From assembly GCA_035937595.1 (NCBI GenBank), contig DASZHS010000001.1:1800-65799 (forward strand): DNA of 64,000 nucleotides, given 5' to 3'. This stretch comes from Acidimicrobiales bacterium (GTDB taxonomy: Bacteria; Actinomycetota; Acidimicrobiia; Acidimicrobiales; RAAP-2). Within the stretch, counting starts at the first letter, position 1. Each line of letters opens with the position of its first letter. The position numbers and the translations under genes were made by a program. The notes beneath the pieces are model-generated. The model was not told the origin of the DNA. It made no database searches and saw only the letters and a program-made list of their open reading frames with translations. This document shows positions 7,500 through 55,817 of this stretch, piece after piece.

Positions 7500-8579
7500 T
7501 CAGGCCGGGTCGCCCCTCGAGAACGCCTCGACCATCTCGAAGGCCACGTCGTCGTGGTACTGCACGGGCGGCGACTTCATGAAGTAGGCGCTCGGGCCGA
7601 CGAGTGGCCCACCGATCCCGCGGTCGAGCGCGGCCTTCGCGCAGCGCACCGCGTCGATGATGACGCCCGCCGAGTTGGGCGAGTCCCACACCTCGAGCTT
7701 GAGCTCGAGGCTGAGCGGCACGTCGCCGAAGTTGCGGCCCTCCATGCGGATGTAGGCCCACTTGCGGTCCTGCAGCCACGGCACGTGGTCCGAGGGCCCG
7801 ATGTGGATGTCGTCGGGGGCGAGCACCGTGTCCTCCATCTGGGAGGTGACCGCCTGGGTCTTGGACACCTTCTTCGACTCGAGCCGGTCGCGGTCGAGCA
7901 TGTTGCGGAAGTCCATGTTGCCGCCGACGTTGAGCTGGTAGGTGTGGTCGAGGGCGGTGCCCCGGTCCTCGAAGAGCCGCGTCAGCACGCGGTGCACGAT
8001 CGTCGACCCCACCTGGCTCTTGATGTCGTCGCCGACGATCGGGACCCCGGCGTCGGTGAAGCGCTTCGCCCACACCGGGTCCGAGGCGATGAACACGGGG
8101 ATGGCGTTCACGAAGGCGACCCCCGTCGCGAGCGCGGCCTCGGCGTAGTGGCGCTGGGCGGCCTCCGAGCCGACGGGCAGGAACGCGACGAGCACGTCGG
8201 CGCGGCTGTCGCGCAGGGCCTGGGCGACGTCGACGGGCTCGGCAGGGGACTCCTCGACGACCTCGCGGTAGTACTTCGACAGGCCGTCGAGCGTGGGCCC
8301 GCGCTGGACGGTCACGCCGACGTGGCCGACCTCGGCGAACCGGATGGTGTTGTTCTGCGACGAGAAGATGGCCTTGGACAGGTCCGTGCCGACCTTCGCG
8401 GCGTCGACGTCGAACGCGCAGACGAACTCGAGGTCGCGCACGTGGTAGCCGGCGAGCTCCACGTGCATGAGGCCGGGCACGACGTCGGCGGGGTCCGCGT
8501 CGTGGTAGTAGCGCACGCCCTGGATGAGCGAGCTCGCGCAGTTGCCGACGCCGGCGATCGCGACTCTGATCGTCCCCAT
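7500..8579 (-). CDS. ino1: inositol-3-phosphate synthase
   Basis: 359 aa. [25 protein letters not shown]... and the rest of the sequence match the actinobacterial Ino1 type. Confidence 0.93.
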
Positions 8580-18000: not shown

Positions 18001-18654
18001 GTGGCTCGCGGTGGCGACGTGCGAGCGGACACGCGAGCGGACACGCGAGCGGACGTTCGGCCGGTCTTCCTGGCGGCGGGGGCTGCGTTCGTCGCCGTCG
18101 CTGCGTCGGTCGACCCGGGGCGCCTCGACGAGCCCGCGACCGATGCCTGGACGCTGCGCGAGCTCCTCGCGCACGCGACGCGCGGGCTGACGACGGTGGC
18201 CTCCACGCTGGCCGCGCCGATCGACCCGTCGTCACGGGTGCTCGAGAGCGCGAGCGGGTACTTCGCCGCCGCCATGGCCATCCCGCACGTCCACGAGGGG
18301 ATCGTGCAGCGCGCCCGTGACGCGGCGGCGGCCATGGGCGACGACCCGGGCGGCACCGCCCGCGCGGCGCTTGCGACCGTGGCACCGCTCGTCGAGGCCG
18401 CGCCGCCGGACCGGCTCGTGCAGCACTTCGCGGGCCGGCTGCGCTTCGACGCGTACCTGGCGGCGCGGGTGGTCGAGCTCACGCTGCACACCGCCGACGT
18501 CCAGCTGGCGCTGGGGGTGCCGGTCTCGTTCCCGGACGCGCCGGCACGCCTCACCTGCGACGTGCTCCTCGAGCTGATGGACCGCGCCGATCCGCTCGCC
18601 GTCGCGTGCGCGCTGACGGGACGGACAGGACCGACGTGCCAGGTGCTGTCCTGA
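18001..18654 (+). CDS. maleylpyruvate isomerase N-terminal domain / mycothiol-dependent (DinB-fold) family protein
   Basis: The motif WTLRELLAHATRG is typical of this family. The start is uncertain (GTG at 18001, 18010 or 18019). Confidence 0.7.
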   Translation: MARGGDVRADTRADTRADVRPVFLAAGAAFVAVAASVDPGRLDEPATDAWTLRELLAHATRGLTTVASTLAAPIDPSSRVLESASGYFAAAMAIPHVHEGIVQRARDAAAAMGDDPGGTARAALATVAPLVEAAPPDRLVQHFAGRLRFDAYLAARVVELTLHTADVQLALGVPVSFPDAPARLTCDVLLELMDRADPLAVACALTGRTGPTCQVLS

Positions 18655-19560: not shown

Positions 19561-20622
19561 GTGCCGAGCGCCTACGACCCCGACGGGGCCGCGCTCGACG
19601 TCGCGCTCCGCGACGCGCCCGCGTACCGACGGCGCCAGGTGGACGAGGGGCTGTGGCGCCAGCACCGCCGGCCCGAGGAGATGACGGTGCTCCCGCGCGC
19701 GCTGCGCGACGCGCTCGCAGCGGCGTTCCCCCCGTCGCTGCGCTGCGTGGCGACGGCGGTCGCCGACGACGGGCGCACGACCAAGTGGGTCTTCGCGCTC
19801 CACGACGGCGCCACCGTCGAGACCGTGGCGATGGCCTACGGCGGCCGCGTGACCGTCTGCATCTCCTCGCAGGCGGGCTGCGCGATGGGGTGCACGTTCT
19901 GCGCCACGGGCCAGGCGGGGTTCCGCCGACACCTCGCCGCCGCCGAGCTCTTGGAGCAGGTGGTCGCCGCCGCTCGGCACTGCGCGCCGCGGCGCCTCGG
20001 CAACGTCGTCTTCATGGGGATGGGCGAGCCGCTCGCGAACTACGGCCCGACGCTCTCGACGGTGCGCGCGCTGACCCAGAAGATGGGGCTCTCGGCGCGG
20101 CACCTGACGGTGTCCACGGTCGGGGTGGCCCCCAGGATCGAGCAGCTGGCCGCCGACGCGCCGACCGTCACGCTCGCCGTCAGCCTCCACGCGGCGAACG
20201 ACGCGCTGCGCGACACGCTGGTGCCGCTCAATCGGACCTACCCGCTCGAGCGGGTGGAGGCGGCCTGCCAGGTCTGGCGCGCCGTCACGCGTCGGCGCGT
20301 CTCGTTCGAGTGGGCGCTGATCGACGGCGTGAACGACCGGGCCCAGGACGCCGCCGAGCTCGCCGCCATCGCGCGGCGCTGCGCGGCGCACGTCAACCTC
20401 ATCGCGCTCAACCCGACGCCCGGCTACGCCACGAAGGGGACGCCGCGCGAGGGGGTCCTCGCGTTCCGCGCCGCGCTCGAGCGGCTCGGCGTCAACGCCA
20501 CGGTCCGCGCGACGAGGGGCCGCGAGATCGACGCGGCGTGCGGGCAGCTCGCCGCCGTCGAGGGCGGGCGACGCTCGCGCACCGTCGCCGGGCCGGTGCG
20601 TCGTGAGACCCAGGACGGCTAG
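19561..20622 (+). CDS. rlmN: 23S rRNA/tRNA (adenine-C2)-methyltransferase, radical SAM
   Basis: The radical-SAM motif CAMGCTFCATG, plus GMGEPLANY and a C-terminal ..IDAACGQL. Confidence 0.9.
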   Translation: MPSAYDPDGAALDVALRDAPAYRRRQVDEGLWRQHRRPEEMTVLPRALRDALAAAFPPSLRCVATAVADDGRTTKWVFALHDGATVETVAMAYGGRVTVCISSQAGCAMGCTFCATGQAGFRRHLAAAELLEQVVAAARHCAPRRLGNVVFMGMGEPLANYGPTLSTVRALTQKMGLSARHLTVSTVGVAPRIEQLAADAPTVTLAVSLHAANDALRDTLVPLNRTYPLERVEAACQVWRAVTRRRVSFEWALIDGVNDRAQDAAELAAIARRCAAHVNLIALNPTPGYATKGTPREGVLAFRAALERLGVNATVRATRGREIDAACGQLAAVEGGRRSRTVAGPVRRETQDG

Positions 20623-21842
20623 CGGCCGGGAGCGACCTCGGCGGTGAACCGCGGGAGGCGCCACGCGAGGAGGAGTGCGCCGACCGCGCACCCGAGCCCG
20701 CCGCTCACCGCCGAGATGGCCGGGGTCGTGAGCGCGGCGACCGCGCCCGCCTCGAAGTTCCCGAGCCGCGGGCCGCCGGTCACGACCGCCATCTGGATCG
20801 AGCTCAGCCGGGTGCGGAACTCCTCGCCGATCGACTGCTGCAGGATCGTGTTGCGCAGGATCGCGCTGATTACGTCGGCCCAGCCGGCGATCGCGAGGAG
20901 CACGAGGGCGACCCACAGGATGCTCGAGATCCCGAACGCGGCGATGGCGAGGCCCCAGACGACGACGGCGACGACGACGGCGCGGCCGCGTCGCCGGACC
21001 CCGCCCACCCACCCCGTGGTGAACGCGCCGAGGAACCCCCCGACCCCGGGGGCGGCGTAGAGCAGCCCGACGACGACCGAGCCCGCGTGGAACCGCTGGG
21101 CCGCGAAGGCGGGGAAGAGGGCCGACGGCATGCCGAGGATCATCGCGTTGAGGTCGAGGAGGTAGACGCCCTGGAGCACCTGGCGGCCCCGCAGGTACGA
21201 GAACCCCTCGCGGATCGCCCCGAGCCCCGGGCGCCGCGCGTGGGTGAGCGGCGGCAACGGCGACATCGCCAGGGTGGCGGCGAAGATCGCGAAGAAGCTG
21301 ACCGCGTCGGTCACGTAGGCGGCGGGGAGGCTGAACGCGGCGATGACGCCGCCGAGCGCGGGGCCGACGACGGTCGCGAGCTGGATCGTGGTCTGGTTCA
21401 GCGAGTACGCGGCGAGCAGCTTGTCCCCCGCGACGAGGCGCGGCACCGCCGCGTTGCGCGACGGGTTGGAGAACCCGGTCAGCCCGGCCGCGAGGGCGGT
21501 GAGGGCGTAGAGGGCGACCAAGGAGGGGTGTGCGACGGCGGCGTTCACCGCGATCGCGCCGGTGAGCGCCGAGAGCCCGAGCGCGCTGAAGGCGAGGAGG
21601 CGCCGTTTGTCGACGACGTCGCCGACCGTCCCGCCGTAGAGCGAGCCGATGACGAGGAAGGGCAGCGACACGAGGCTGATCGCGCCCACCTGGAGCGTCG
21701 AGTGCGTGAGGTCCCAGACCTGAATGGCGACCGCCACGATCGTGATTTGGTTGCCCATCATCGAGACGAGCTGACCGCTGAACAGCAGTCGGAAGTCACG
21801 GCTCGCGCGCAGCGGCGACACGTCGACGAGGAGCCGCGGCAT
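20619..21842 (-). CDS. MFS transporter (EntS-like)
   Basis: 407 aa with 12 predicted hydrophobic segments. The N-terminus FRLLFSGQLVSMMGNQ is typical of the family. Confidence 0.85.
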   Translation of the reverse strand: MPRLLVDVSPLRASRDFRLLFSGQLVSMMGNQITIVAVAIQVWDLTHSTLQVGAISLVSLPFLVIGSLYGGTVGDVVDKRRLLAFSALGLSALTGAIAVNAAVAHPSLVALYALTALAAGLTGFSNPSRNAAVPRLVAGDKLLAAYSLNQTTIQLATVVGPALGGVIAAFSLPAAYVTDAVSFFAIFAATLAMSPLPPLTHARRPGLGAIREGFSYLRGRQVLQGVYLLDLNAMILGMPSALFPAFAAQRFHAGSVVVGLLYAAPGVGGFLGAFTTGWVGGVRRRGRAVVVAVVVWGLAIAAFGISSILWVALVLLAIAGWADVISAILRNTILQQSIGEEFRTRLSSIQMAVVTGGPRLGNFEAGAVAALTTPAISAVSGGLGCAVGALLLAWRLPRFTAEVAPGR

Positions 21843-21928
21843 CGGCGCAGGCTACGCAGCCGGCGCCGATCCGACGCCATCGACGACTACCGTGGAGCGG
21901 GCACTCCGGCTCCGAGGAGGCAACGGCA

Positions 21929-23044
21929 ATGGTGCGTTCTGCAAGGGCGACGCGCGGGGCGACCGCGGCGGCGGACGAGGACATGGTCCAGCTGCTCGCA
22001 CCGAGCGGCGAGCGCGTCACGCACCCCGAGTACGACCTCGAGCCGAGCGACGACGAGGCGCGCGGGCTGTACCGCGACATGGTGATCATCCGTCGCTGCG
22101 ACGTCGAGATGACCGCGCTGCAGCGCCAGGGGCAGCTCGCGCTCTGGGCGCCGCTGCGCGGCCAGGAGGCCGCCCAGATCGGCGCGGGCCGCGCGCTCGC
22201 GCCCGACGACTTCTGCTTCCCCGGCTACCGCGAGCACGGCATCGCGTGGTGCCGCGGCATCACGCCCGAGCAGTCGGCCCGAAGCTTCCGCCAGGTCACG
22301 AACGGCGGGTGGGACCCCTACGAGCACAACTACGCCGAGCCGTCGATCGTGATCGGGAACAACGTGGTCAACGCCGTCGGCTACGCGATGGGCGTGCAGC
22401 ACGACGGGGCGGAGAGCGCGGTCATGGCGTGCACCGGCGACGGCGGGATGAGCGAGGGCGACGTCGCCGAGGCGTTCGTCTGGGCCGCGGTGTTCCAGGC
22501 ACCCATCGTCTTCCTGCTGCAGAACAACCAGTGGGCGATCTCCGAGCCCACCGAGCGCCAGAGCCGGATCCCGCTGTGCCGCCGGGCGGACGGGTTCGGG
22601 TTCCCCGGCGTGCGCGTCGACGGCAACGACGTCTTCGCGATGCTCGCGGTCACCCGCGCCGCCCTCGCCCGCGCGCGGGAGGGCTCGGGGCCGACGCTGC
22701 TCGAGGCGTTCACCTACCGCATGGGCGCGCACACGACCTCGGACGACCCGACGCGGTACCGCGTCGACACCGAGGTCGAGGACTGGCTGCAGCGCGACCC
22801 GGTCGAGCGGCTGCACCGCTACCTCGTCGCGGCGGGCGCCGCGGACGAGGCATGGACCGCGGAGATCGACGCGGAGGCCGACGGGATCGCGAGCCGGCTG
22901 CGCGACGCGGTCGTGGCGCTGCGCGGGCCGTCGCCGGCGTCGATCTTCGACCACGTCTACGCCGAGCCGCACCCCCTCGTCGACGAGGAGCGCGCGCAGA
23001 TGGTCGCCCTCTTGGGCGCCGAGGACGCAGGGAGTCTCAAGTGA
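21929..23044 (+). CDS. 2-oxoacid dehydrogenase E1 component alpha subunit (BCKDH/PDH type)
   Basis: 371 aa with SD GAGGAGG. It has a TPP motif region GDGGMSEGDV...LLQNNQWAIS. Confidence 0.9.
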   Translation: MVRSARATRGATAAADEDMVQLLAPSGERVTHPEYDLEPSDDEARGLYRDMVIIRRCDVEMTALQRQGQLALWAPLRGQEAAQIGAGRALAPDDFCFPGYREHGIAWCRGITPEQSARSFRQVTNGGWDPYEHNYAEPSIVIGNNVVNAVGYAMGVQHDGAESAVMACTGDGGMSEGDVAEAFVWAAVFQAPIVFLLQNNQWAISEPTERQSRIPLCRRADGFGFPGVRVDGNDVFAMLAVTRAALARAREGSGPTLLEAFTYRMGAHTTSDDPTRYRVDTEVEDWLQRDPVERLHRYLVAAGAADEAWTAEIDAEADGIASRLRDAVVALRGPSPASIFDHVYAEPHPLVDEERAQMVALLGAEDAGSLK

Positions 23045-24015
23045 CCGAGCTCACGCTGGCCAAGGCGATCAACGAGGGGCTCCGCAAGGCCATGGAGGAC
23101 AACCCGAAGGTCCTCCTCATGGGCGAGGACATCGGACGGCTCGGCGGGGTCTTCCGTGTCACCGACGGGCTGCAGAAGGACTTCGGCGAGCAGCGCGTCA
23201 TCGACTCGCCGCTCGGTGAGTCGGGGATCGTGGGCACCTCGGTCGGGCTCGCGATCCGCGGCTACCGCCCGGTGTCCGAGATCCAGTTCGACGGCTTCGT
23301 CTACCCGGCGTTCGACCAGCTCGTCTCCCAGGTCGCCAAGCAGCACGCGCGCTCCGAGGGCGCGATCACGCTGTCGCTGGTCGTGCGGATCCCCTACGGC
23401 GGGGGCATCGGGGCCGTCGAGCACCACTCCGAGAGCCCCGAGGCGTACTTCGCGCACACCGCGGGGCTGCGCGTCGTGTCCCCGTCGACGCCGAACGACG
23501 GGTTCTGGATGGTGCGCCAGGCGATCGAGTGCGACGACCCGGTCCTGTTCCTCGAGCCCAAGTGCCGCTACTGGGAGAAGGGCGAGGTCGACGAGGCCGC
23601 GCCGCCGTCCGGACTCTTCGAGGCGGCCGTGCGCCGCGTGGGCACCGACGCGACGCTCGTCGCCTACGGGCCGAGCGTGAAGACCTGCCTCAAGGCCGCC
23701 GAGGTGGCGCAGGGCGAGGGCCGGAGCCTCGAGGTCATCGACCTGCGCTCGATCTCGCCGCTCGATGCCGACACGGTCGCCCGCTCCGTCGAGAAGACGG
23801 GGCGGCTGCTCATCGCGCACGAGGCGCCGGTGTTCGGCGGCATGGGCGCCGAGATCGCCGCGCGGCTCACCGAGCGGTGCTTCTACTCGCTCAGCGCACC
23901 GCCGCTGCGCGTCGGCGGCTACCACACGCCGTACCCGCCGAGCCGCGTCGAGGAGGACTACCTCCCGAACATCGACCGGCTGCTCGACGCCCTCGACCGC
24001 GCCTTCGAGTTCTAG
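23041..24015 (+). CDS. 2-oxoacid dehydrogenase E1 component beta subunit
   Basis: GTG at 23041 overlaps the alpha-subunit stop. Sequence LAKAINEGLRKAMEDNPKVLLMGEDIG..GGVFRVT. Confidence 0.9.
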   Translation: MTELTLAKAINEGLRKAMEDNPKVLLMGEDIGRLGGVFRVTDGLQKDFGEQRVIDSPLGESGIVGTSVGLAIRGYRPVSEIQFDGFVYPAFDQLVSQVAKQHARSEGAITLSLVVRIPYGGGIGAVEHHSESPEAYFAHTAGLRVVSPSTPNDGFWMVRQAIECDDPVLFLEPKCRYWEKGEVDEAAPPSGLFEAAVRRVGTDATLVAYGPSVKTCLKAAEVAQGEGRSLEVIDLRSISPLDADTVARSVEKTGRLLIAHEAPVFGGMGAEIAARLTERCFYSLSAPPLRVGGYHTPYPPSRVEEDYLPNIDRLLDALDRAFEF

Positions 24016-24020
24016 CCCCG

Positions 24021-25355
24021 GTGGCCGAGCGCTCGTTCCCGCTGCCCGACGTGGGCGAGGGCCTCACCGAGGCCGAGATCGTCACCTGGAAGGTGGCCGT
24101 CGGCGACACCGTCACGATCAACCAGCCGCTCGTCGACATCGAGACGGCGAAGGCGACCGTCGAGCTGCCGAGCCCGTACGCGGGCCGGGTGGTCGCGCTG
24201 CTGGCCGCACCCGGCGACGTCGTCGACGTCGGGACCTCCATCATCACGATCGAGACCTCGGGCGACGAGAGCGCCGCGACGGCGGCGTCGGCGTCGTCGG
24301 CCGCGCCCGCCGAGCGCACGGCGGTCCTCGTCGGCTACGGCGTGGCGACCGAGGAGGCGCCCACGCGGCGGCACCGACGCGGCGCCGCCGCGCCGCCCCC
24401 GCCCGCCCCCGCCGCCCCAGCTTCGCGGGCGGTCCCCTCCGCGCCCGCGCTCGCGCCGCGCTCGACGCCGCCGGTGCGCAAGCTCGCGAAGTCCCTCCAC
24501 CTCGACCTCGCCGCCATCCGCGGCACGGGTCGCGACGGGCTCATCACCCGTGCGGACGTCGAGGCGGCGGCCTCGCCGACCACGGCCGTCGCGCGCGCGC
24601 CGTCGGGGCCGACCCGCTTCGCCGGCGTCGAGCTCGCCGGGTGGGACGAGGGGCCGCTCGAAGAGCGCATCCCGGTCCGCGGCGTGACGCGCGCGATGGC
24701 GGAGTCGATGAAGCTGAGCGCCTTCACCCAGCCCCAGGCCTCTGCGGCGCTGCAGGTCGACGCCACGCGGACGATGGACCTCGTCGACTCGCTGCGCGCC
24801 CGCCCCGCCCTCGCGGGGGTCAAGCTCTCGCCCCTCACGATCCTCGCACTGGGGGTCTGCCACGCCGCGAGGGCGAACCCCGGCATCAACAGCGCCTTCG
24901 ACGAGGCGGCCGGCGAGGTGGTCGTGCGCCGCCGCATCGCCCTGGGGATCGCCGCCGCCACGGACCGGGGGCTCATCGTCCCGAACATCAAGGGGGCCGA
25001 CCAGCTCGACCTCGTGGCCATGGCGAGGGCGCTCGACGCGCTCGTGGCGACGGCGAGGGCGGGGACGACGACGCCCGCCGACATGCTCGGCACGACGCTC
25101 ACCATCACGAACGTCGGCCCCTTCGGGATCGACGGCGCCGTCGCAATCCTCCCGCCGGGGACGTCGGCCATCGTCGCGGTCGGCCGGATCGCACCCAAGC
25201 CCTGGGTCGTCGACGGGGCGGTCGTGGCACGCCAGGTGGTCGAGCTCACGGTCACCTTCGACCACCGCCTGGTCGACGGCGCGCTCGCCTCCACGTTCCT
25301 GCGCGACGTGGGGCGCTTCGTCGAGGACCCGGCCGCGAGCCTCCTCGGCGGATGA
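24021..25355 (+). CDS. dihydrolipoamide acyltransferase E2 component
   Basis: Lipoyl domain DVGEGLTEAEIV.W.V..GD.V...Q.L..IETAKA, a Pro/Ala linker, a subunit-binding domain, and the catalytic ..DHRLVDGA. Confidence 0.9.
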   Translation: MAERSFPLPDVGEGLTEAEIVTWKVAVGDTVTINQPLVDIETAKATVELPSPYAGRVVALLAAPGDVVDVGTSIITIETSGDESAATAASASSAAPAERTAVLVGYGVATEEAPTRRHRRGAAAPPPPAPAAPASRAVPSAPALAPRSTPPVRKLAKSLHLDLAAIRGTGRDGLITRADVEAAASPTTAVARAPSGPTRFAGVELAGWDEGPLEERIPVRGVTRAMAESMKLSAFTQPQASAALQVDATRTMDLVDSLRARPALAGVKLSPLTILALGVCHAARANPGINSAFDEAAGEVVVRRRIALGIAAATDRGLIVPNIKGADQLDLVAMARALDALVATARAGTTTPADMLGTTLTITNVGPFGIDGAVAILPPGTSAIVAVGRIAPKPWVVDGAVVARQVVELTVTFDHRLVDGALASTFLRDVGRFVEDPAASLLGG

Positions 25356-26191
25356 CCGGCGACGCCGCCCTCGAGCTCGTCGACCTCGACCGGTACCCGA
25401 TCGACGCGCCCGCGTCGCCCGGGCACGACGCGGCCGTCGGCGCGGCACGCGCCGAGCTCGCGGACCGCGGCGCCGCGGAGCTCGCGGGCTTCGTCACCCC
25501 CGACGGCGTCGCGGCGCTGCAGCGCGACGCCGAGGCGCTGGCGGTGCGGTCGTTCCACTCCGACGGCGTCGGCACGGCGTACCTCGAGCTGCCAGAGGAC
25601 CGGTGGGCACCCGAGCATCCCCGCCAGACCTGGGCGCCCTACGCCGTCGGCGCCGTCGGCTACGACGTGATCCCGCGCGCCTCGCCCCTGCGCCGCCTCT
25701 ATGAGTCCGCCCTGCTGCTCGCCTTCCTCGAGGCCGTCCTCGACCGCGGACGCCTGCACCGCTACGCGGACCCCTGCGGCGCGCTCAACCTCGCCGTCAT
25801 GGGGAAGGGCGACGAGCTGCAGTGGCACTTCGACCAGACCGACTTCGTGGTCTCCCTGGCCATCCAGGCGGCCGAGCACGGTGGCGACTTCGACGTCGCC
25901 CCGAGGATCCGCAGCGCCGGCGACGAGCGCTACGACGACGTCGGCCGCGTGCTCAAGGGCGACCGCTCGCGCGTCGTCACCCTGCCGATGACCCCGGGCA
26001 CGCTCCTCGTCTTCGAGGGCCGCCACTCGCTGCACCGCGTGAGCCCGATCGAGGGCGACGCGCTGCGCCACGTCGGCCTGCTCGCCTACGACACCTCGCC
26101 CGGCACGGTCTCGTCGGACCTCCTGCGCGAGGTCCGCTACGGGCGCACGACGCCGTTCGCCGACCCGCCCGACGCGTGGCCGCCTTCGTAA
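25352..26191 (+). CDS. Fe(II)/2-oxoglutarate-dependent oxygenase (substrate unknown)
   Basis: ATG at 25352 overlaps the E2 stop (ATGA). The triad is H-x-D in WHFDQTD plus a distal His in GRHSLHRVSP, with an Arg 11 residues later. That makes it hydroxylase-type (HxD), not halogenase-type (HxG). Confidence 0.75.
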   Translation: MTGDAALELVDLDRYPIDAPASPGHDAAVGAARAELADRGAAELAGFVTPDGVAALQRDAEALAVRSFHSDGVGTAYLELPEDRWAPEHPRQTWAPYAVGAVGYDVIPRASPLRRLYESALLLAFLEAVLDRGRLHRYADPCGALNLAVMGKGDELQWHFDQTDFVVSLAIQAAEHGGDFDVAPRIRSAGDERYDDVGRVLKGDRSRVVTLPMTPGTLLVFEGRHSLHRVSPIEGDALRHVGLLAYDTSPGTVSSDLLREVRYGRTTPFADPPDAWPPS

Positions 26192-26694
26192 CCCAGCTCG
26201 GCGAGGCGTTCTGCGGGGCCGGCCCCGAGGCCGCGCACGTGAACACCGTGCTCGGCGCCAAGGGCGGCCCGGTCGAGGCCGCGTGGGTGACGGCCCTCGC
26301 CACCCCCCGCAAGGGGCACGTGGCCTTCGTCGTCGCGGCCCAGCCCTCGCTCGCGGTCAAGCCGATGACGCTGTTCGTGAACAAGGCGACGATCGCGACC
26401 GACGACCACGCCGCCCTCACCTGGGGCCCCGCCCAGGCCGGCGTCGCCTCCGGCGTGCTCGACGCCGTCGCCGACGGCACGGTCCCGGCCGCGCTCGCCG
26501 ACGAGCTCGTGCTGATCGTGGCGGTGTGGCTGAGCGCCGAGGCGCGCGACGCCGACGCCGTCTACGGGTGCAACCGCGAGGCGACCCACGCCTCGCTGCG
26601 CGCCGGCGCGCTCGGCCACCCGACGCCCGGCGACGTGCTCGCCGTGCGCGAGGACCCGTACAACGCCTACTGGCTGCCGCCCTCGATGCGCTGA
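26176..26694 (+). CDS. formaldehyde-activating enzyme (Fae) family protein
   Basis: It is collinear over about 160 aa with the Methylobacterium Fae sequence as I remember it: [20 protein letters not shown] / [32 protein letters not shown] / [34 protein letters not shown] / [22 protein letters not shown]. The start is uncertain. The in-frame GTG at 26176 overlaps the upstream gene by 16 nt. Confidence 0.8.
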   Translation: [172 protein letters not shown]

Positions 26695-26728
26695 GCCCCG
26701 GGACCGGTGCTCGCGCGGACCGGCGGCG

Positions 26729-27550
26729 TCACCCGGTGGCGGGCGGGCGCTCGATCTGGAGCTGGACCTCGCGCTCCTCGAACCCCACCGCGCGGTACAG
26801 CTCGATCGCCACGTAGCCGGGGTCCGCGACCATCACGAGCGTCCGCGCGCCGAGCGTGTCGAACCCAAAGCGGCCGGCGTGGTGGACGAGCGTCCCCGCG
26901 AACCCCTGGCGTCGAAGGCCCGGGTCGGTGTGCACCGTCTGGAACCGCGCGAGCCCCGGTCCTGCGGTGACGAGGCCCATCTGACAGACGAGACGGCCGT
27001 CGGCGAAGGCACCGAACCAGGCCCCGTGCCCGGCCTCGACGAGCCGCCGGTTCGTGACGGCCTTGGCGGCCGCGAACGCGCGGAACCCCGCCCGGTCGAG
27101 CTCCTGGCCGATCGAGCGCACCTCGAGGTCCACGCTCTGGACCCAGTCCTCGTCCGTGCGGAGCGTGCGGCACTCGGCGTCGGGGTTCGGGTGGCGCGGC
27201 TCGTGGACGATGGACGTGGTCATTACGGCCTGGGCGTCCGCGGTGAAGCCCCGAGCGGCGAACCACGCGAGGTCGTCCAGCGCGCCGTGCGTGCCGTCGA
27301 AGCCGAGCGCCACGTGCCGCGCGTCAGGGAAGGTCGCGGCGAAGCGGTCGAGCCACCCTGGCGACGACGCCGGCGTCGGGACGTCGTGCAGGAGCAGGAA
27401 GTTGCCCCACCAGTGGGAGGGGTTGTGCGAGCTGCGGACGACGAGGTGGTCCCCACGCTCCTCGATCGTCGTGCCGCCGAGCCTGAGGAGCGAGAGATCG
27501 GTGCGGAACCCGAGGGAGGCGACGTCCACGCCCCGCACCGTAGGCAGCAT
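26729..27550 (-). CDS. GNAT family N-acetyltransferase
   Basis: ATG at 27550. The C-terminal acetyl-CoA motif is V.TDPGLRRQGFAGTLV. Confidence 0.75.
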   Translation of the reverse strand: MLPTVRGVDVASLGFRTDLSLLRLGGTTIEERGDHLVVRSSHNPSHWWGNFLLLHDVPTPASSPGWLDRFAATFPDARHVALGFDGTHGALDDLAWFAARGFTADAQAVMTTSIVHEPRHPNPDAECRTLRTDEDWVQSVDLEVRSIGQELDRAGFRAFAAAKAVTNRRLVEAGHGAWFGAFADGRLVCQMGLVTAGPGLARFQTVHTDPGLRRQGFAGTLVHHAGRFGFDTLGARTLVMVADPGYVAIELYRAVGFEEREVQLQIERPPATG

Positions 27551-35965: not shown

Positions 35966-36465
35966 ACGCTGTCCGCATGGGAGTCGACGCAGGTCGCGCA
36001 GCACGCCGATCCAGTCGTCCGAGAATCGATTGAATGGCGACTGGGTTCGGGGAGAGTAGCGCCGCCAGCTGACGGTTTTGGGCGGCACAAGGTCTGCCAC
36101 ACGACACGCATCGGTGCTCCAACGCGAGCTCGTTGTGGACAGGTGCAATCAGTCGTCGACCTCGACGCGCGCGGTGCGGCGGGTAGCAGCGCAATCTGCA
36201 AGTGGCGACAGCGGTACCCGTGAGTCAGCACGTGATGAAGTTCTCACGACCCGGCGCGTCGCATCCAGTGGTTGAGGGCAGGGTTGCACTCCTCCCTCGG
36301 ACGACGCCGCAGGTTGCAGCGCTTCCACGTGACGGCGATCGACTCCTGGCCTAGGGTGGCCGAGCCGCGACAACGGCGCGAACCTACAACGGGCGTTCGG
36401 TCCATGCCGAAGCAGGGATTCCCATGGAGCCTTCCGGACGGCCGTCAACCAAACGGAGGACACAC

Positions 36466-37686
36466 ATGAGAAAAGTACGCAGGGGTCGCGGTCTGGCCTT
36501 GGCGGTAGCCGGGGTGACTGCGCTGTCCATGCTCGTCCTGAGCCCGATGGCCGCAAACGCCACGTCAGCGCCGAGGTCGAAGCCCGCCCCGGGCTGTGCC
36601 CAGGTGCAGCAGCCTTCGAGTTCAGCTGCGATCGCCCACATCGGCGGCATCATCCTCGCGCAGAGCTCCGTTGCCACTGGTGGGTGCCACAAGCCCCCGC
36701 CAGAGCCGGCGTTCGACGGCGCTCCGCCGCTGCTCTTCCACCCGACGAACTGCTTCGGCTTCGGTGTCCCGTGCTTCAACGGCAACGTGATGATGACGGC
36801 GTCGACCGGCCCGCTCTACGTGACACCGATCTTCTGGAACCCGACCGGGTACCCGATGTCGGATGCCTATAAGAGCATCATCACGGGGTACCTGAACAAC
36901 GTCGCGAAGATGAGCGGCCAGAACCAGAACGTGTTCTCGACGCTGAACGAGTACTCAGGGACCAACGGCCAGATTCAGTACAACATCAAGGTCGGACCGG
37001 TCATCAACGACACCAGCGCGCTGCCGTTGTCGGGTTGCACGGTGGAGCCCCTTGACACGTCGGGGATCTACGCCGACAACTCGGGCTACAGCGCCTGCCT
37101 GGACGACAACCAGATCGAGAACGAGGTCGAAGCGGTTCGGACGGCCAACAGCCTGCCGGCCGACCTGACTCACATCTACGTGGTGTACCTGCCCAAGGGT
37201 GTCGAGTCGTGCTTCTTCCCGGGGCCGACCGCTTCCAACAACGTCTGCACGATCAACCACTTCCCGACCGCGGCGTACTGCGCGTACCACAGCTTTGACA
37301 ACCAGAGCGCCGTCTACGCGAACATGGTGTACCCGATCTACCAGTCGCCGGTTGGCTTCACCTGCGGCAGCGACGCAAGGTTCCCGGTCATCGAGTCGCC
37401 GAACGGCAACGCCGACGCCGACACCGAGATCAGCCCGACCAGCCACGAGATCAGCGAAGCGATCACCGACCCGGATACCCAGACGGGCTGGTATGACCAG
37501 TTCGGGTTCGAAAACGGTGACGAGTGCGCGTACGTCTATGGCTCGACGAACGGCCCGCGTGGCGGCTACTTCAACCAGGTCATCAACGGCCAGAGGTACC
37601 TCACGCAGCTCGAGTTCAGCAACAAGGTGTTCGCAAGCTCCGGCGGCACCGCCGGATGTGTGCCAGGGGCGTCGTCAGTCAAGTAG
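36466..37686 (+). CDS. secreted Cys-rich hypothetical protein (possible EXORDIUM/PHI-1-like domain)
   Basis: ATG at 36466 has GGAGGA 6 nt upstream. Signal peptide MRKVRRGRGLALAVAGVTALSMLVLSPMAANA. The mature protein has 12 Cys. The stretch ..HIYVVYLPKGV..C....C.YHS....PNGNADADTEISPTSHEISEAITDPDTQTGWYD resembles the plant PHI-1/EXORDIUM core. The gene is visibly lower in GC than its flanks. Confidence 0.7.
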   Translation: MRKVRRGRGLALAVAGVTALSMLVLSPMAANATSAPRSKPAPGCAQVQQPSSSAAIAHIGGIILAQSSVATGGCHKPPPEPAFDGAPPLLFHPTNCFGFGVPCFNGNVMMTASTGPLYVTPIFWNPTGYPMSDAYKSIITGYLNNVAKMSGQNQNVFSTLNEYSGTNGQIQYNIKVGPVINDTSALPLSGCTVEPLDTSGIYADNSGYSACLDDNQIENEVEAVRTANSLPADLTHIYVVYLPKGVESCFFPGPTASNNVCTINHFPTAAYCAYHSFDNQSAVYANMVYPIYQSPVGFTCGSDARFPVIESPNGNADADTEISPTSHEISEAITDPDTQTGWYDQFGFENGDECAYVYGSTNGPRGGYFNQVINGQRYLTQLEFSNKVFASSGGTAGCVPGASSVK

Positions 37687-37711
37687 TCGCCTACGCACAG
37701 CAAGGAGTCCA

Positions 37712-37753
37712 CGAGGCTCCGGGTCGGGACGCAGTTCCCGGCCCGGAGCCTCG
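37712..37753 (+). terminator. long perfect hairpin downstream of the island's last gene
   Basis: CGAGGCTCCGGG (37712-37723) pairs with CCCGGAGCCTCG (37742-37753). The 18-nt loop contains an inner CGGGA/TCCCG stem. There is no clear U-tract. Confidence 0.5.
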
Positions 37754-37870
37754 TTGCATCTGGACCTGAATCGCCGCCGGTCGCGCCCCGGCGTCGCGCG
37801 ATCGGGTGCACCTTGGTGACCTGGTCGGATTAGGGAAGGTCCGTGGAGGTCGCCTGCGCAAGCCGTGCGT

Positions 37871-37943
37871 GCGTTGGGCTCACCGCGTTGGGCTCACATA
37901 TTGGGGCTCACCGCGAGTGGAGCGGGCGACGGAGCGGGCGACG
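37871..37943. repeat. two sets of short tandem repeats abutting and overlapping the 3' end of tRNA-Gly
   Basis: Three copies of a 14-mer: GCGTTGGGCTCACC (37871-84), GCGTTGGGCTCACA (37885-98), TATTGGGGCTCACC (37899-912). Then GAGCGGGCGACG twice (37920-31 and 37932-43). The second 12-mer copy is the tRNA acceptor/discriminator end. Confidence 0.8.
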
Positions 37944-38003
37944 GGAATCGAACCCGCGTTCTCAGCTTGGGAAGCTGATGTTCTGCCGCTGAACTACGCC
38001 CGC
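37933..38003 (-). tRNA. tRNA-Gly (anticodon CCC)
   Basis: Hand-folded cloverleaf from the reverse complement. Acceptor GCGGGCG/CGCCCGC, D-stem GTTC/GAAC, anticodon stem TCAGC/GCTGA with loop TTCCCAA, T-arm GCGGG-TTCGATT-CCCGT, discriminator U. CCA is not encoded. Confidence 0.9.
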
Positions 38004-38033
38004 AGAATGGGCAGAGACTAGCGTTCTCGCGCC

Positions 38034-38612
38034 ATGGTTCTCTCTGACCGCTCGATCCGAGAGGCGATCGAGGCAGGTCGGATCGTCATCGATCCCCTCG
38101 GTGTGGACTGCATCCAGCCCTCGTCCGTCGACCTGCACGTTGACCAGTACTTCCGGCTGTTCCGCAACCACACCTCGAGGGTGATCGACGTTCGAGAGGA
38201 TCAAGAGGACCTCACCGAGTTGGTCGACGTGGGAGCCGAAGGGCCGCTCATCTTGCACCCGGGCGAGTTCATGCTGGGTGCGACGATCGAGCGGGTCGGC
38301 GTCCCCGAGGACCTGGTCGCGCGGCTCGAGGGGAAGAGTTCGCTCGGCCGGCTCGGCCTGCTGATCCACTCGACGGCCGGCTTCGTCGACGCGGGGTGGG
38401 ACGGGCACCTCACCTTGGAGCTGTCGAACGTCGCCAACCTCCCGATCACGCTGTACCCAGGAATGAAGATCGGCCAGATCAGCTTCTTCCAGATGACGAC
38501 CAAGGCCGACCGCCCCTACGGCTCGAGCGGGCTCAACTCCAAGTACCTCGGGCAGCGCGGCCCGACGCCCAGCCGCTACGCGGAGAACTTCCGCCGGCAC
38601 ACCTCGTCGTGA
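38034..38612 (+). CDS. dcd: dCTP deaminase
   Basis: 192 aa. [21 protein letters not shown]...[12 protein letters not shown]. Confidence 0.93.
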
Positions 38613-38646
38613 ACGGCTCGCTGGGCTGCGGGACGAGGGACCTCGC

Positions 38647-40695
38647 GTGACGGCCACCCGCCTCGTCGTCGGCCTCGGGGTCACCGCGGTGTGCTTCGCC
38701 GTGGCCGGGCTCCGGTTCTGGTGGCTGCGCCGGCTCATCGGGACCGGCGTCCCCGCACCGGGCCGCTGGAAGGGCTTCCGTCCGCGCGCTGAGGCCGAGC
38801 TCGTCGAGGTCGCGGGGCAGCGCAAGCTGCTGCGCTGGACGGTGCCGGGGCTCGCGCACTTCTTCACGATGTGGGGCTTCACGATCCTGTTGCTCACGAT
38901 CATCGAGGCGTACGGGGCGCTCTTCAGCCGCAGCTTCCACATCTGGTTCATCGGAACCGACGCCTGGGTCGGGTTCCTCGAGGACTTCTTCACGGTCGCC
39001 GTCCTCGTCAGCCTCTGCGTCTTCGCCGTGATCCGCGTCGTCAACTCGCCGGCGCGCAAGGAGCGCTCGAGCCGGTTCTACGGCTCGCACACCGGGGCGG
39101 CGTGGCTGGTCCTCGCCTACATCGCCGCGGTGATGGTCACGCTCCTGCTCTACCGTGCCGCGCAGGTCAACACGGGCTACTTCCCCTACGGCACGTCCAC
39201 CTGGGCGTTCGCGAGCCACACCGTCGCGAGCTGGCTCGCCCCCCTCGGGACGTCGGCCAACAGCGCCATCGAGACGACGTTCCTCCTGCTCAACATCGCG
39301 GTCATCGCCTCGTTCCTCGTCTTCGTCTCGTACTCGAAGCACCTGCACATCTTCATCGCGCCGATCAACGTTGCGTCGTCGCGGCGGCCCCGCGCGCTCG
39401 GGGCGCTCGACAAGACGCCCGACATGGACATGGAGCACGTGAGCGAGGACACCGTGTTCGGCGTCGGGCACGTCGGCGAGTTCACCTGGAAGCAGATGCT
39501 CGACTTCGCCACCTGCACCGAGTGCGGACGGTGCCAGTCGCAGTGCCCGGCGTGGAACACGGGCAAGCCGCTCAGCCCGAAGCTCGTGATCATGGACCTT
39601 CGCGACACCCTCTTCGCGTCGGCGGACCGTCTGCTCGCCGGGGCGCCGAACGACGGCGACACGCTCGTGCCCTCGGTCATCGACCCCGACGTGCTGTGGA
39701 GCTGCACGACGTGCGGGGCTTGCGTCGAGGAGTGCCCCGTCGACATCGAGCACGTCGACGCCATCATCGACATGCGTCGCTACGAGGTGCTCATGGAGTC
39801 GCGGTTCCCCACCGAGGCGGGGTTGCTCCTCCGCAACCTCGAGAACCAGGGGGACCCGTGGGGGCTGGGGGCGGCAAAGCGCACCGACTGGCTGGCCGAG
39901 CTCGACTTCGAGGTGCCCGTGGTCAACGACGTGATCCCCGAGGACGTCGAGTACCTCTACTGGGTGGGCTGCGCGGGGTCCCTCGACGAGCGCGGTCGCA
40001 AGCAGGTGGTCTCGACGGCGCGGATGCTGCACCGCGCCGGCGTCCGCTTCGCGATCCTCGGGCCGAAGGAGTCGTGCACGGGCGACCCGGCGCGCCGGAT
40101 GGGCAACGAGTACCTCTACCAAGAGCTCGCCAAGGCGAACATCGAGACGCTGCACGCGGCGGGCGCGCGAAAGATCGTCGTCACCTGTCCGCACTGCTTC
40201 AACTCGATCCGCAACGAGTACCCCGCGCTCGGTGGGGAGTTCGAGGTCGTCCACCACGCCCAGCTGCTCGACACCCTGGTCCGCGACCACCGCCTCACGC
40301 CCGGGACCGGGTACCAGGGGACCGTCACCTACCACGACCCGTGCTACCTCGGCCGCCACAACCGCGTGTTCGACGAGCCGCGCGGCGTGCTCGACGCGAT
40401 CCCCGGCGTGCGGACTGTCGAGATGGGGCGCTGCCGCGAGAAGGGGTTCTGCTGCGGCGCGGGTGGCGCGAGGATGTGGATGGAAGAGACGATCGGCACG
40501 CGTGTCAACCGGAACCGCACCGAGGAGGCCCTCGCGACGGGCGCCGACGTCGTGTCCACGGCGTGCCCCTACTGCATGATCATGCTCGACGACGCCGTGA
40601 AGGCCGAGGGCCGCGGCGACGACGTCCGGGTCCTCGACATCTCCCAGGTCCTGGAGGCCTCGCTCGCCGTGCAGCCCACCCCACCGTCTGGGTGA
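38647..40695 (+). CDS. membrane-anchored (Fe-S)-binding reductase, HdrD/GlpC-like (Mtb Rv0338c-type)
   Basis: 682 aa with an N-terminal multi-TM domain. Two ferredoxin motifs are present: [12 protein letters not shown] and [12 protein letters not shown]. Two CCG-type Cys-rich domains are present: ..GCAGS..CPHCFNS.. and ..[21 protein letters not shown]. Confidence 0.85.
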
Positions 40696-53889: not shown

Positions 53890-54408
53890 CTACCAGCCGA
53901 CGGTGCCGTCGACGAGCTCGCGCAGGAAGTCCGCGTGCCCGTTGTGCCGCGCGTACTCCTCGATCATGTGGACGTAGATCCACCGCAGGGTGCACGGGCG
54001 GCCGTCGCGCAGCCCGGCGTCGTCGAGCTGCTTGTGCGAGGCGCTCGTCCGCGCCGCGTTGCAGGCGCCGCGCCACATCTCGAGGTCGTCCTCCCAGACC
54101 GCGTCGTCGAGCGGCACGAGCGCGGCGTCGCCGGCCCCCGGCGTCGCGAAGTAGCGGGGCGTCTCGGGCTCGCGGAGCAGCACGCGGACGAACCAGCTCC
54201 GCTCGACCTCCGCCATATGGCGGACGAGCCCGTGCAGCGAGAGGCTCGACGTCGGGATCGCGCGGCGCTTGCGCTGCTCGTCGCTGAGCCCCTCGCACTT
54301 CATGAGCAGCGTCACCCGGTGGAACTCGAGCCACTCCTCGAGCATCTGGCGCTCCGGGAGGTCGTAGGGCGGCTCGTGGCGCCGCGGGTCCACCAGCTCC
54401 TCGACCAT
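53890..54408 (-). CDS. DinB-family / DUF664 (mycothiol-transferase-like) protein
   Basis: ATG at 54408 with a GAGGAGGAG SD. Motifs ..SLHGLVRHMAEVER.W. and ..HMIEEYARHNGHADFLRE... Confidence 0.8.
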   Translation of the reverse strand: MVEELVDPRRHEPPYDLPERQMLEEWLEFHRVTLLMKCEGLSDEQRKRRAIPTSSLSLHGLVRHMAEVERSWFVRVLLREPETPRYFATPGAGDAALVPLDDAVWEDDLEMWRGACNAARTSASHKQLDDAGLRDGRPCTLRWIYVHMIEEYARHNGHADFLRELVDGTVGW

Positions 54409-54539
54409 CGCTCCTCCTCGCCGGCGCGTCGTCGACGCTCGTCCGTACCGGCGGGCTGGCGCGACGACGCGTCGCGCCACCCAGGTCGACGCGACCTCGC
54501 CGGTAGGATTGGTCGTCAGCAACCGCGGAGGGTCATCCG

Positions 54540-55817
54540 TTGCCAGCAACCGTCGTGGTCGGCACCCAGTGGGGTGACGAGGGCAAGGGGAAGCTCACCG
54601 ACCTGCTCTCCAAGGAGATGGACGTCGTCGTCCGCTACCAGGGCGGGCACAACGCGGGCCACCGCATCGTCGTCGACGGCGAGGCGTTCGCGCTCCAGCT
54701 CGTCCCCTCCGGCGTGCTGTACCCGGCCGTGACCCCCGTGATCGGCAACGGCGTGGTCGTCGACCCTCAGGTCCTGCTCGCCGAGGTCGACGCGCTCGAG
54801 GCGAGGGGCATCGACACCTCGCACCTGCTCGTCTCGGGCAACGCGCACCTGATCATGCCCTACCACCAAGAGCTCGACCGGGTGACCGAGCGGTTCTTGG
54901 GGCGCAACGCGCTCGGCACGACGAAGCGCGGCATCGGTCCCGCCTACGCCGACAAGGCGGCCCGCGTCGGGCTGCGCGTCCAGGACCTCCTCGACGCGAA
55001 GATTTTCCGCCAGAAGCTCGAGGTCGTCCTCAAGGAGAAGAACGGCGTCCTCTCGCGCGTGTACAACCGGCTCCCCATGTCGGCGGACGAGATCGCCGCG
55101 GCCTACCTCGACGTCTACGCCCCGAGGATCGCGCCCATGATCGCCGACACCGTCGGGTTCCTCCACGACCAGCTCGCCGCAGGGCGTCACGTGCTGCTCG
55201 AGGGCGCCCAGGCGACCTTCCTCGACCTCGACCACGGGACCTACCCCTTCGTCACGTCGTCGAACCCGGTCGCCGGCGGCGCGTGCACCGGCTCGGGGAT
55301 CGGCCCGCGCGACATCTCGAGGGTCATCGGGATCGCGAAGGCCTACGTGACACGAGTGGGTGCGGGGCCGTTCCCGACCGAGCTCACCGACGACGTGGGC
55401 GACCTGCTCGTCGAGCGCGGCCACGAGTTCGGGACCAACACGGGGCGCCGCCGGCGCTGCGGGTGGTTCGACGTCCCGATGGCGCGCCAGGCCGCACGGC
55501 TCAACTCGCTGTCGGACATCGCGCTCACCAAGCTCGACGTGCTCGACGCGCTCGAGTCGGTGAAGGTCTGCGTCGCCTACGAGGCCGACGGGAAGCGCTA
55601 CGACTACCCGCCGTACCACCAGTCGGTGCTGCACGCGGTCACCCCGGTCTACGAGGAGCTCGAGGGGTGGCGCGAGGACCTGACCGCCTGCACGTCGTTC
55701 GACGAGATGCCCGCGGCCGCGCGGGACTACGTCGCGTTCCTCGCCACGTGCACGGGCGTGCCGATCCACGTCGTGGGCGTCGGGCCCGGCCGCGAGCAGT
55801 TCGTCGCCGTGCCGTGA
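54540..55817 (+). CDS. purA: adenylosuccinate synthase
   Basis: TTG start. [14 protein letters not shown], 425 aa. Confidence 0.95.

Follow-up and report, generated by a model that had tools for sequence, protein, structure and literature searches.

A conserved oxygenase-Fae gene pair beside a 2-oxoacid dehydrogenase operon in Acidimicrobiales

Do five closely packed genes that look like a single operon also serve a single pathway? The question is raised by positions 21929-26694 of a 64,000-nucleotide stretch of DNA (the window; coordinates are counted from its first letter) from an Acidimicrobiales metagenome-assembled genome (assembly GCA_035937595.1, contig DASZHS010000001.1), whose genes are also present on an identical JGI contig. 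The block comprises genes for E1 alpha, E1 beta and E2 of a 2-oxoacid dehydrogenase, followed by genes for an Fe(II)/2-oxoglutarate (2OG) oxygenase and a homolog of formaldehyde-activating enzyme (Fae). A previous examination of the letters alone, here called the sequence-only reading, had joined all five in one catabolic module. Comparison with related genomes argues for a different division, in which the block very probably represents two units lying side by side. Unit 1 (21929-25355) has the appearance of an ordinary Gram-positive-type operon for a heterotetrameric E1 and an E2, of the pyruvate dehydrogenase (PDH) or branched-chain 2-oxoacid dehydrogenase (BCKDH) type, with E3 presumably encoded elsewhere. 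Unit 2 (25352-26694) is predicted to be an autonomous, translationally coupled two-gene module, conserved across the order, with one deeper branch or more carrying it as well. The five genes are as follows:

21929-23044, plus strand: E1 alpha (thiamine pyrophosphate-dependent) of a PDH/BCKDH-type 2-oxoacid dehydrogenase; PF00676, E 3e-67
23041-24015, plus strand: E1 beta; PF02779 and PF02780; its GTG start overlaps the E1 alpha stop
24021-25355, plus strand: E2 dihydrolipoyl acyltransferase; PF00364 (lipoyl), PF02817 (E3/E1-binding) and PF00198 (catalytic)
25352-26191, plus strand: Fe(II)/2OG oxygenase of the HalD/BesD family, first gene of the conserved pair; PF23169 (HalD), 45.2 bits against a cut-off of 26
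26176-26694, plus strand: Fae homolog, second gene of the pair; PF08714 and TIGR03126

The plus-strand reading frames lie where the sequence-only reading had placed them, and independent gene calls on the identical JGI contig gave the same boundaries.

The Oxygenase and Fae Genes as a Conserved Unit

A scan for the oxygenase across one genome per species found 298 genomes with a relative, and the best 80 of these 298 supplied the loci analyzed. Their records are labeled Acidimicrobiales, Acidimicrobiaceae or more broadly actinobacterial, with the exception of L065, labeled Acidobacteria; the neighbors found in the window were compared with all 80 loci by tblastn. Oxygenase and Fae genes adjoin in 79 of the 80, the remaining locus being cut by a contig end. 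The stop of the first overlaps the start of the second in 65 of 80 pair-bearing loci when the contig of the window is counted with the 79 genome loci (64 of 79 when it is left out). These overlaps span 1-19 nt, mostly 4 or 16, and no gap within a pair exceeds 43 nt. Across the order the paired proteins are 60-80% identical. Clustering of all open reading frames from the 80 loci revealed no third conserved gene, no other family occurring in more than 27 loci; the most frequent other families (ppa, an HtrA-like protease, and a MacB-type exporter) belong to a single synteny class. Near-universal adjacency with overlapping codons, maintained in very different genomic contexts, is hard to explain without a functional tie. 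The idea that oxygenase and Fae form a functional unit is thereby strengthened, and the gene-neighborhood comparison that had been proposed as its check places the pairing well beyond this genome.

The pair also occurs in a deep branch (GCA_005777735.1), where an oxygenase 50% identical to that of the window overlaps a Fae gene whose product is 59% identical, the two partners having diverged together. The surrounding genes encode a sulfatase, MBOAT, RPE65 and GH2 proteins, and a di-heme oxidoreductase. This is a wholly different context, from which it follows that the pair is older than the sampled Acidimicrobiales or has spread outside them; it may indeed have spread beyond the order. The deep-branch pair lies at positions 4250-5610 of locus L173 (SXLH01000039.1), with a 7-nt overlap and a G+C content of 69%, and was seen in L172 as well. 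A literature search turned up neither a Fae/2OG-oxygenase pair nor 2OG oxygenases in histidine utilization (hut) operons, nor any account of Fae from Acidimicrobiia or Actinobacteria. Both families are known, and it is their conserved pairing and host range that appear to be undescribed.

The Dehydrogenase Genes and Their Link to the Pair

Unit 1 encodes all the parts of a heterotetrameric-E1 2-oxoacid dehydrogenase core: both E1 subunits and an E2 in which lipoyl, subunit-binding, and acyltransferase domains are all present. E1 alpha scores 417.5 bits against TIGR03181, the NCBIfam equivalog for PDH E1-alpha, marginally over the cut-off of 411.35; its closest solved structures are Geobacillus PDH E1 alpha (203 bits) and then Thermus BCKDH (177 bits). 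For E1 beta the closest solved structure is the beta subunit of the Thermus 2-oxo acid (branched-chain) dehydrogenase (301 bits), and E2 reaches no NCBIfam equivalog cut-off. The earlier label "BCKDH-type" thus holds for a 2-oxoacid dehydrogenase E1 alpha-E1 beta-E2 set and not for branched-chain specificity, which cannot be called with the relatives split between Geobacillus PDH for E1 alpha and Thermus BCKDH for E1 beta.

These three genes rarely accompany the pair. Upstream sequence of 3.6 kb or more is available for 66 loci, and in only six of these do E1 alpha-E1 beta-E2 directly precede it, with E2-oxygenase distances of -4 to +17 nt. Set against the 79 of 80 loci in which oxygenase and Fae adjoin, this means that the five genes do not co-occur as a conserved group. 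Over all 80 loci the upstream neighbor is qcrB in 12, a major facilitator superfamily (MFS) gene in nine, E2 in six, and some other gene in 45, the contig being too short in eight. Nine loci share the flanks of the window (short-chain dehydrogenase/reductase, radical SAM, and MFS genes, with AhpC and a response regulator in most), and all nine lack E1/E2, the oxygenase gene directly adjoining the MFS gene. In at least 12 Acidimicrobiales genomes the pair instead stands directly downstream of qcrA-qcrB (bc1 Rieske protein and cytochrome b) on the same strand. Three of these 12 loci serve as examples:

L007, 7467-11367: qcrA-qcrB and the pair, same strand
L025, 8552-11334: qcrA-qcrB and the pair, same strand
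L041, 8043-11334: qcrA-qcrB and the pair, same strand

Single cases place the pair behind a gene of the isocitrate/isopropylmalate dehydrogenase family or between GH26 and EAL genes, and on a complete 4.7-Mb chromosome it is found alone between unrelated genes. Complete or near-complete assemblies with the pair include OY969923.1 and OY970155.1. A neighbor-joining tree built on the concatenated pair splits the E1/E2-linked loci into two groups that interleave with MFS-linked ones.

Membership of the dehydrogenase complex in the same pathway, as first proposed, is not supported by these patterns: E1/E2 precede the pair in 6 of 66 loci, are missing from loci with the same flanks, and are replaced by qcrA-qcrB in 12 genomes. 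The five-gene neighborhood is nonetheless no peculiarity of one genome. Six further species genomes have it, as do some metagenome contigs, and the link to the branched-chain dehydrogenase-like (bkd) genes is conserved only within a small subclade. The "extended bkd operon" of five genes is a lineage-specific juxtaposition. Conservation belongs to the pair, which stands behind different housekeeping operons in different lineages, that of the dehydrogenase being one of several; in the lineage of the window the pair is probably read from the dehydrogenase promoter. Described as a dehydrogenase complex extended by two genes, the locus reflects chance in gene order for the most part, and such a description would mislead annotation.

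Junctions and Expression Signals

All four junctions, read directly from the sequence, are exactly as previously given. E1 alpha and E1 beta have GTGA in common (23041-23044); E1 beta terminates in a TAG whose last base is 24015, separated by 5 nt from the GTG of E2 at 24021; E2 and the oxygenase have ATGA in common (25352-25355); and the Fae gene starts at a GTG (26176) located 16 nt within the oxygenase gene, which ends with TAA at 26189-26191. That GTG had been described as the only in-frame start of the Fae gene. The frame is in fact open back to a GTG at 25822, so the description fails as to uniqueness. The choice of start itself stands, as it keeps the conserved N-terminus and agrees with homologs and gene callers.

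Ahead of the block lies the following:

21843-21928, plus strand: intergenic region of 86 nt, a probable operon promoter (low confidence)

It contains a Shine-Dalgarno-like GAGGAGG (21914-21920), 8 nt ahead of the E1 alpha ATG, and a -10-like motif of the TAnnnT type, ACTACCGT, at 21886-21893. Because the genes overlap and GAGGAGG is found ahead of E1 alpha only, all five genes probably share one transcript in the lineage of the window. Co-transcription of E1/E2 with the pair is plausible in this genome for the further reason that the space between E2 and the oxygenase is too small for a terminator. A shared transcript is a statement about expression and not about pathway membership.

A motif resembling a -10 box (TAnnnT), ACTACC(N)T, is found 5' of E1 alpha in both the window and L002. 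ACTACC also occurs 7-10 nt ahead of the oxygenase start in the MFS-linked loci L010, L015, L027, and L065, a distribution that may point to one and the same divergent promoter for whichever gene is placed first, and to a lack of leaders in some of these mRNAs. Scans for sigma-70 promoter and intrinsic terminator consensus sequences over 21500-27000 returned no sites, which is uninformative at 73% G+C. At Rfam gathering thresholds the whole window yielded a single tRNA and seven loci yielded nothing, so that no riboswitch or leader RNA was identified upstream of the pair.

The Oxygenase

The oxygenase is linked to characterized enzymes chiefly through structure and sensitive profiles. Its AlphaFold2 model has a predicted local distance difference test score (pLDDT) of 91. 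The top Foldseek matches of this model are HalB, HalD, BesD, HalA, and the lysine 4-hydroxylase homolog 7JSD, with template modeling (TM) scores of 0.62-0.77 at identities of 15-18% and an E of 2e-13 for HalB. A profile built from 44 diverse homologs finds HalB at E 2.8e-16 and BesD at E 2.8e-12. Searches of solved structures with the single sequence or a close profile gave only weak C-terminal matches to WelO5, the diverse profile being required.

Active-site residues were counted in an alignment of 116 family sequences (the window protein and 115 representatives). A W-H-[FY]-D motif is present in 116 of 116, in the window as W158-H159-F160-D161, and the protein has the full facial triad, H159-x-D161 ... 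H228, together with R239, the 2OG-binding arginine. The distal H228 is kept in 109 of 116 sequences and R239 is invariant or nearly so. In the same columns halogenases have W-H-W-G and the hydroxylase WHWD. The halogenase signature, HxG, with Gly or Ala in place of the carboxylate ligand, is thus missing from the window oxygenase. The HxD...H triad makes this protein a hydroxylase-type oxygenase and not a halogenase, and a halogenase reading, which the NCBI family name "HalD/BesD family halogenase" would invite, was dropped on account of the invariant HxD motif.

A clue to the substrate comes from Arg83 of HalB, which binds the substrate carboxylate (PMC10041140). This residue aligns with the arginine of the profile motif "dhpR", which is H89-P90-R91 in the window; the arginine, R91, is invariant in a close alignment of 13 sequences and present in 85 of 116 family-wide. 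The alignment of R91 with Arg83 suggests a substrate with a carboxylate.

Further homologs were sought in 1.8 billion cluster representatives, which yielded 241 oxygenase relatives at E<1e-30, and in metagenomes scanned with a 12-sequence alignment as query. Neither in 80 metagenome loci with more distant homologs nor in five loci inspected individually does a Fae gene adjoin, and below approximately 50% identity no homolog was seen beside Fae. The Fae-less set includes clades 53-54% identical to the window oxygenase, for which the nearest loci are lyase-linked. In about ten loci a Fae-less homolog precedes an aspartate-ammonia-lyase-like gene (NCBIfam PRK12273, approximately 420-450 bits, under the cut-off), and in L090 and L171 an aldehyde dehydrogenase gene stands behind the oxygenase homolog; others lie beside a divergent LysR regulator. 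The lyase or aldehyde dehydrogenase loci are these:

L090, 7001-10629
L140, 8001-10059
L171, 2532-4828
L111, L117, L129, L144, L147, L150, L156, and L157

Partners of these kinds in sister clades, aldehyde dehydrogenase and amino-acid ammonia-lyases, would fit an oxidative N-dealkylation that gives an aldehyde and a free amino acid. Release of an aldehyde by the oxygenase, part of the sequence-only reading, thus has indirect support.

Several features of the Fae-less set are recorded in their own right. The nearest relatives (53-54% identity) form a two-gene unit with an aspartate-ammonia-lyase-like gene that is short at its C-terminus, and an aldehyde dehydrogenase gene is also found on a cyanobacterial (Trichormus) contig. 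Homologs with 35-45% identity stand first in oxygenase-hutU-hutI-hutF-hutH operons (L091, 7001-13538; L092, 8001-14581), that of L091 overlapping hutU by 4 nt next to a divergent IclR regulator. This arrangement suggests a histidine derivative as the substrate of the hut-linked homolog.

The Fae Homolog

The second gene of the pair (protein HEV3211781.1 at NCBI) is assigned to its family with ample scores. It reaches 162.6 bits against PF08714 (cut-off 27) and 137.7 bits against TIGR03126, the model for 5,6,7,8-tetrahydromethanopterin hydro-lyase (cut-off 118.05), aligning over profile positions 2-154 of 160. Against Fae of Methylorubrum extorquens (1Y5Y) the match has an E of 4.6e-28 and 38.6% identity. 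Across 118 sequences of the clade 25 columns are invariant, and 20 of the 25 are identical in the M. extorquens enzyme, including the histidine of an "AH" motif. This is the catalytic histidine: "EAAHVN" aligns with "EVAHID", and the residue is invariant in all 118. It corresponds to His22 of M. extorquens Fae, which in work by Acharya et al. in 2005 reportedly acts as the acid catalyst.

Fae is coupled to a formaldehyde-liberating enzyme elsewhere too, in the archaeal fusion of Fae with hexulose-phosphate synthase (Fae-Hps), where the aldehyde is trapped on a pterin. The NCBIfam model of this fusion, NF009833, scores 96 bits against the window Fae, under its cut-off. Fusions of oxygenase and Fae of the Rosetta-stone kind were also considered and rejected, the database entries that combine PF23169 with PF08714 (P0056, P0292, and P0369) being frameshifted, garbled translations. 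These apparent fusions, with P0313, contain Arg/Pro-rich out-of-frame stretches and could mislead surveys of domain architecture.

Proposed Function and Alternatives

The explanation that we lean towards as a whole, and regard as on balance probable, is a PDH/BCKDH-type operon beside an autonomous pair whose oxygenase probably frees formaldehyde for capture by Fae. In this scheme the HalD/BesD-family Fe(II)/2OG hydroxylase would bind a small carboxylate-bearing substrate, probably amino-acid-like, and hydroxylate a methyl group on a heteroatom of it. The resulting carbinolamine or hemiacetal would collapse to give formaldehyde, and the co-produced Fae would condense this with a pterin one-carbon (C1) carrier, so that the C1 unit is conserved or detoxified and not set free. 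That formaldehyde is released, what kind of substrate is used, and which cofactor accepts the C1 unit are points that we infer from three lines of reasoning: the near-obligate coupling to Fae, the product-handling partners of the sister clades, and the analogy with archaeal Fae-Hps. To our knowledge, formaldehyde capture is the sole job of Fae. Taken by itself, the specific chemistry, release of formaldehyde by the oxygenase and its trapping on a pterin carrier, is held tentatively, as a serious possibility short of a probable one.

Several observations weigh against this explanation. We know of no characterized member of the HalD/BesD family that is a demethylase, the known ones hydroxylating or halogenating C4 or C5 of lysine or ornithine, and to the characterized enzymes the window oxygenase is only 15-18% identical. 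The residue of BesD that we take to bind the alpha-amine of its amino-acid substrate, Asp140, falls in a column that holds Gln162 in the clade of the window and is variable family-wide, so that the binding mode may differ and no simple transfer of specificity is warranted. The mycothiol-related genes of the window bear on the identity of the C1 acceptor. Co-transcription of all five genes could reflect a real metabolic link peculiar to this lineage. Finally, neither the annotated parts of the window nor the conserved neighbors in the 80 loci (approximately 20 kb each) showed any gene of the tetrahydromethanopterin (H4MPT) pathway or its biosynthesis, and Actinobacteria are generally reported to be without the H4MPT pathway (PMC8879981).

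The last of these points also favors the strongest alternative, although we consider it unlikely: Fae has been recruited to a chemistry without free formaldehyde, as a hydro-lyase or cyclase acting on the hydroxylated product or on an enzyme-bound carbinolamine, and the pair is a module of two steps that modifies or synthesizes a metabolite or cofactor conserved in the Acidimicrobiales. Housekeeping surroundings, the strong conservation of the pair across the order, and the fact that its known oxygenase relatives are C-H hydroxylases and halogenases, not demethylases, speak for such a module. It is harder to square with a Fae that passes the TIGR03126 cut-off and matches the H4MPT-dependent M. 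extorquens enzyme at 20 of 25 clade-invariant positions, histidine included, or with sister oxygenases that pair with aldehyde- or amino-acid-handling catabolic enzymes, an association pointing to catabolism.

The model first put forward for this locus now appears quite unlikely. It made the five genes one pathway for a methylated amino or oxo acid, which the oxygenase would demethylate or hydroxylate; Fae would clear the formaldehyde, and E1/E2 would oxidize the 2-oxoacid that results. The tight five-gene order across seven species genomes (54-77% protein identity) and metagenome contigs, and an E2/oxygenase junction that leaves a terminator no space, are what the model has in its favor. Against them stand the scarcity of E1/E2 upstream of the pair, which follows qcrA-qcrB twice as often, the absence of E1/E2 from loci with matching flanks, and the interleaving of the two E1/E2-linked groups with MFS-linked loci in the tree. 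Nor does the block hold an aminotransferase or dehydrogenase able to make a 2-oxoacid from the oxygenase product. More improbable still is an oxygenase that, like "Hydrox", simply hydroxylates a C-H bond of a free amino acid, next to a Fae engaged in general formaldehyde detoxification with no metabolic coupling, for although its fold, HxD triad, and aligned carboxylate-binding arginine resemble those of lysine hydroxylase 7jsd, the adjacency of the genes, their overlapping codons in varied contexts, and the co-divergence of the pair put an uncoupled model under strain.

Formaldehyde release with capture by Fae, the explanation preferred here, can be carried a step further, to a proposal that is speculative and rather doubtful as it stands: the pair would be a hitherto unrecognized module for oxidative demethylation, present across the order and trapping the formaldehyde that it generates. 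It would work in Actinobacteria, which are not known to make H4MPT, either with an unnoticed methanopterin-type C1 carrier or through a Fae clade that uses another acceptor such as tetrahydrofolate or mycothiol. Were this so, use of a non-H4MPT acceptor would give the Fae family an activity not described for it before, and the hydroxylase branch of PF23169 would consist of N-dealkylases feeding free amino acids back into ammonia-lyase pathways, and not of C-H hydroxylases.

Members of the Acidimicrobiales are abundant in soil, peat, and lakes, and few have been cultured. A coupled HalD/BesD-family oxygenase and Fae in nearly every sampled genome of the order is the more useful result embedded in this locus. 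The pair offers a testable function for the large hydroxylase branch of a family that NCBI calls "halogenase", a test of whether Fae chemistry occurs outside H4MPT-containing organisms, and a candidate route by which Acidimicrobiales may use methylated nitrogen compounds without free formaldehyde.

Genomic Setting

The window has a G+C content of approximately 73%. The region is origin-proximal and housekeeping in character, with rpsF-ssb-rpsR-rplI-dnaB, an RlmN-like radical SAM gene, lon, dnaK-grpE-dnaJ-hspR-clpB, and purA. A reading of the block as part of a biosynthetic gene cluster was dropped in view of such surroundings (rpsF-ssb-rpsR-rplI-dnaB, lon, dnaK-grpE-dnaJ-clpB, and purA). Two genes bound the block, and three elsewhere in the window are related to mycothiol:

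20619-21842, minus strand: MFS transporter gene, PF05977/PF07690; divergent from E1 alpha, upstream boundary
26729-27550, minus strand: GNAT-like acetyltransferase gene, PF00583 (weak match); convergent, downstream boundary
7500-8579, minus strand: inositol-1-phosphate synthase (ino1), mycothiol-related
18001-18654, plus strand: MDMPI_N-domain protein, mycothiol-related
53890-54549, minus strand: mycothiol S-transferase, mycothiol-related

The GNAT-like gene was not found beside the pair in related loci. Taken together, ino1, the MDMPI_N protein, and the mycothiol S-transferase indicate a mycothiol-using organism, in which mycothiol-dependent formaldehyde oxidation is an alternative sink to any pterin-linked route. 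Elsewhere, at 36000-40000, the G+C fraction falls to 0.64-0.69 around a tRNA gene (37933-38003, minus strand), beside which an open reading frame of 395 amino acids (approximately 36499-37686) has no Pfam match. This stretch may be a small acquired island, or may simply be rich in RNA and intergenic sequence.

Comparison with Known Systems

Unit 1 resembles actinobacterial and firmicute operons of the pdhA-pdhB-pdhC type in the order E1 alpha, E1 beta, E2, in its stop/start overlaps, and in having E3 outside the operon; presumably Rv2497c-2495c of M. tuberculosis, reported as BCKDH, is an operon of this type. It differs in that in the subclade of the window two further genes follow E2 without a gap.

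The oxygenase shares PF23169 with BesD, HalA, HalB, HalD, and "Hydrox" (PDB 6NIE, 7U6J, 7U6H, and 7JSD), which are its best structural matches. One of its arginines aligns with Arg83 of HalB, and with the lysine 4-hydroxylase homolog "Hydrox" it shares the W-H-x-D motif. It is approximately 25 residues longer than these enzymes, has HxD in place of the halogenase HxG and Gln in the column of BesD Asp140, and has Fae, not biosynthetic genes, as its partner. Its likeness to the Fe(II)/2OG demethylases (AlkB and the JmjC lysine demethylases) is one of proposed logic only, a methyl group on N or O being hydroxylated and lost as formaldehyde; there is no specific homology, and both are absent from the best 50 structural matches of the oxygenase.

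The Fae homolog matches Fae of M. extorquens AM1 (PDB 1Y5Y/1Y60; EC 4.2.1.147), a pentameric enzyme, in family and length and keeps the motifs GE..G..E.AH, GPAQ, and NK.TI. It is set apart by an actinobacterial host with mycothiol-related genes and by a gene invariably coupled to a 2OG oxygenase and not to mtd, mch, or fhc. The archaeal Fae-Hps joins Fae to hexulose-phosphate synthase by fusion, whereas the Fae of the window is joined to its Fe/2OG oxygenase by translational coupling.

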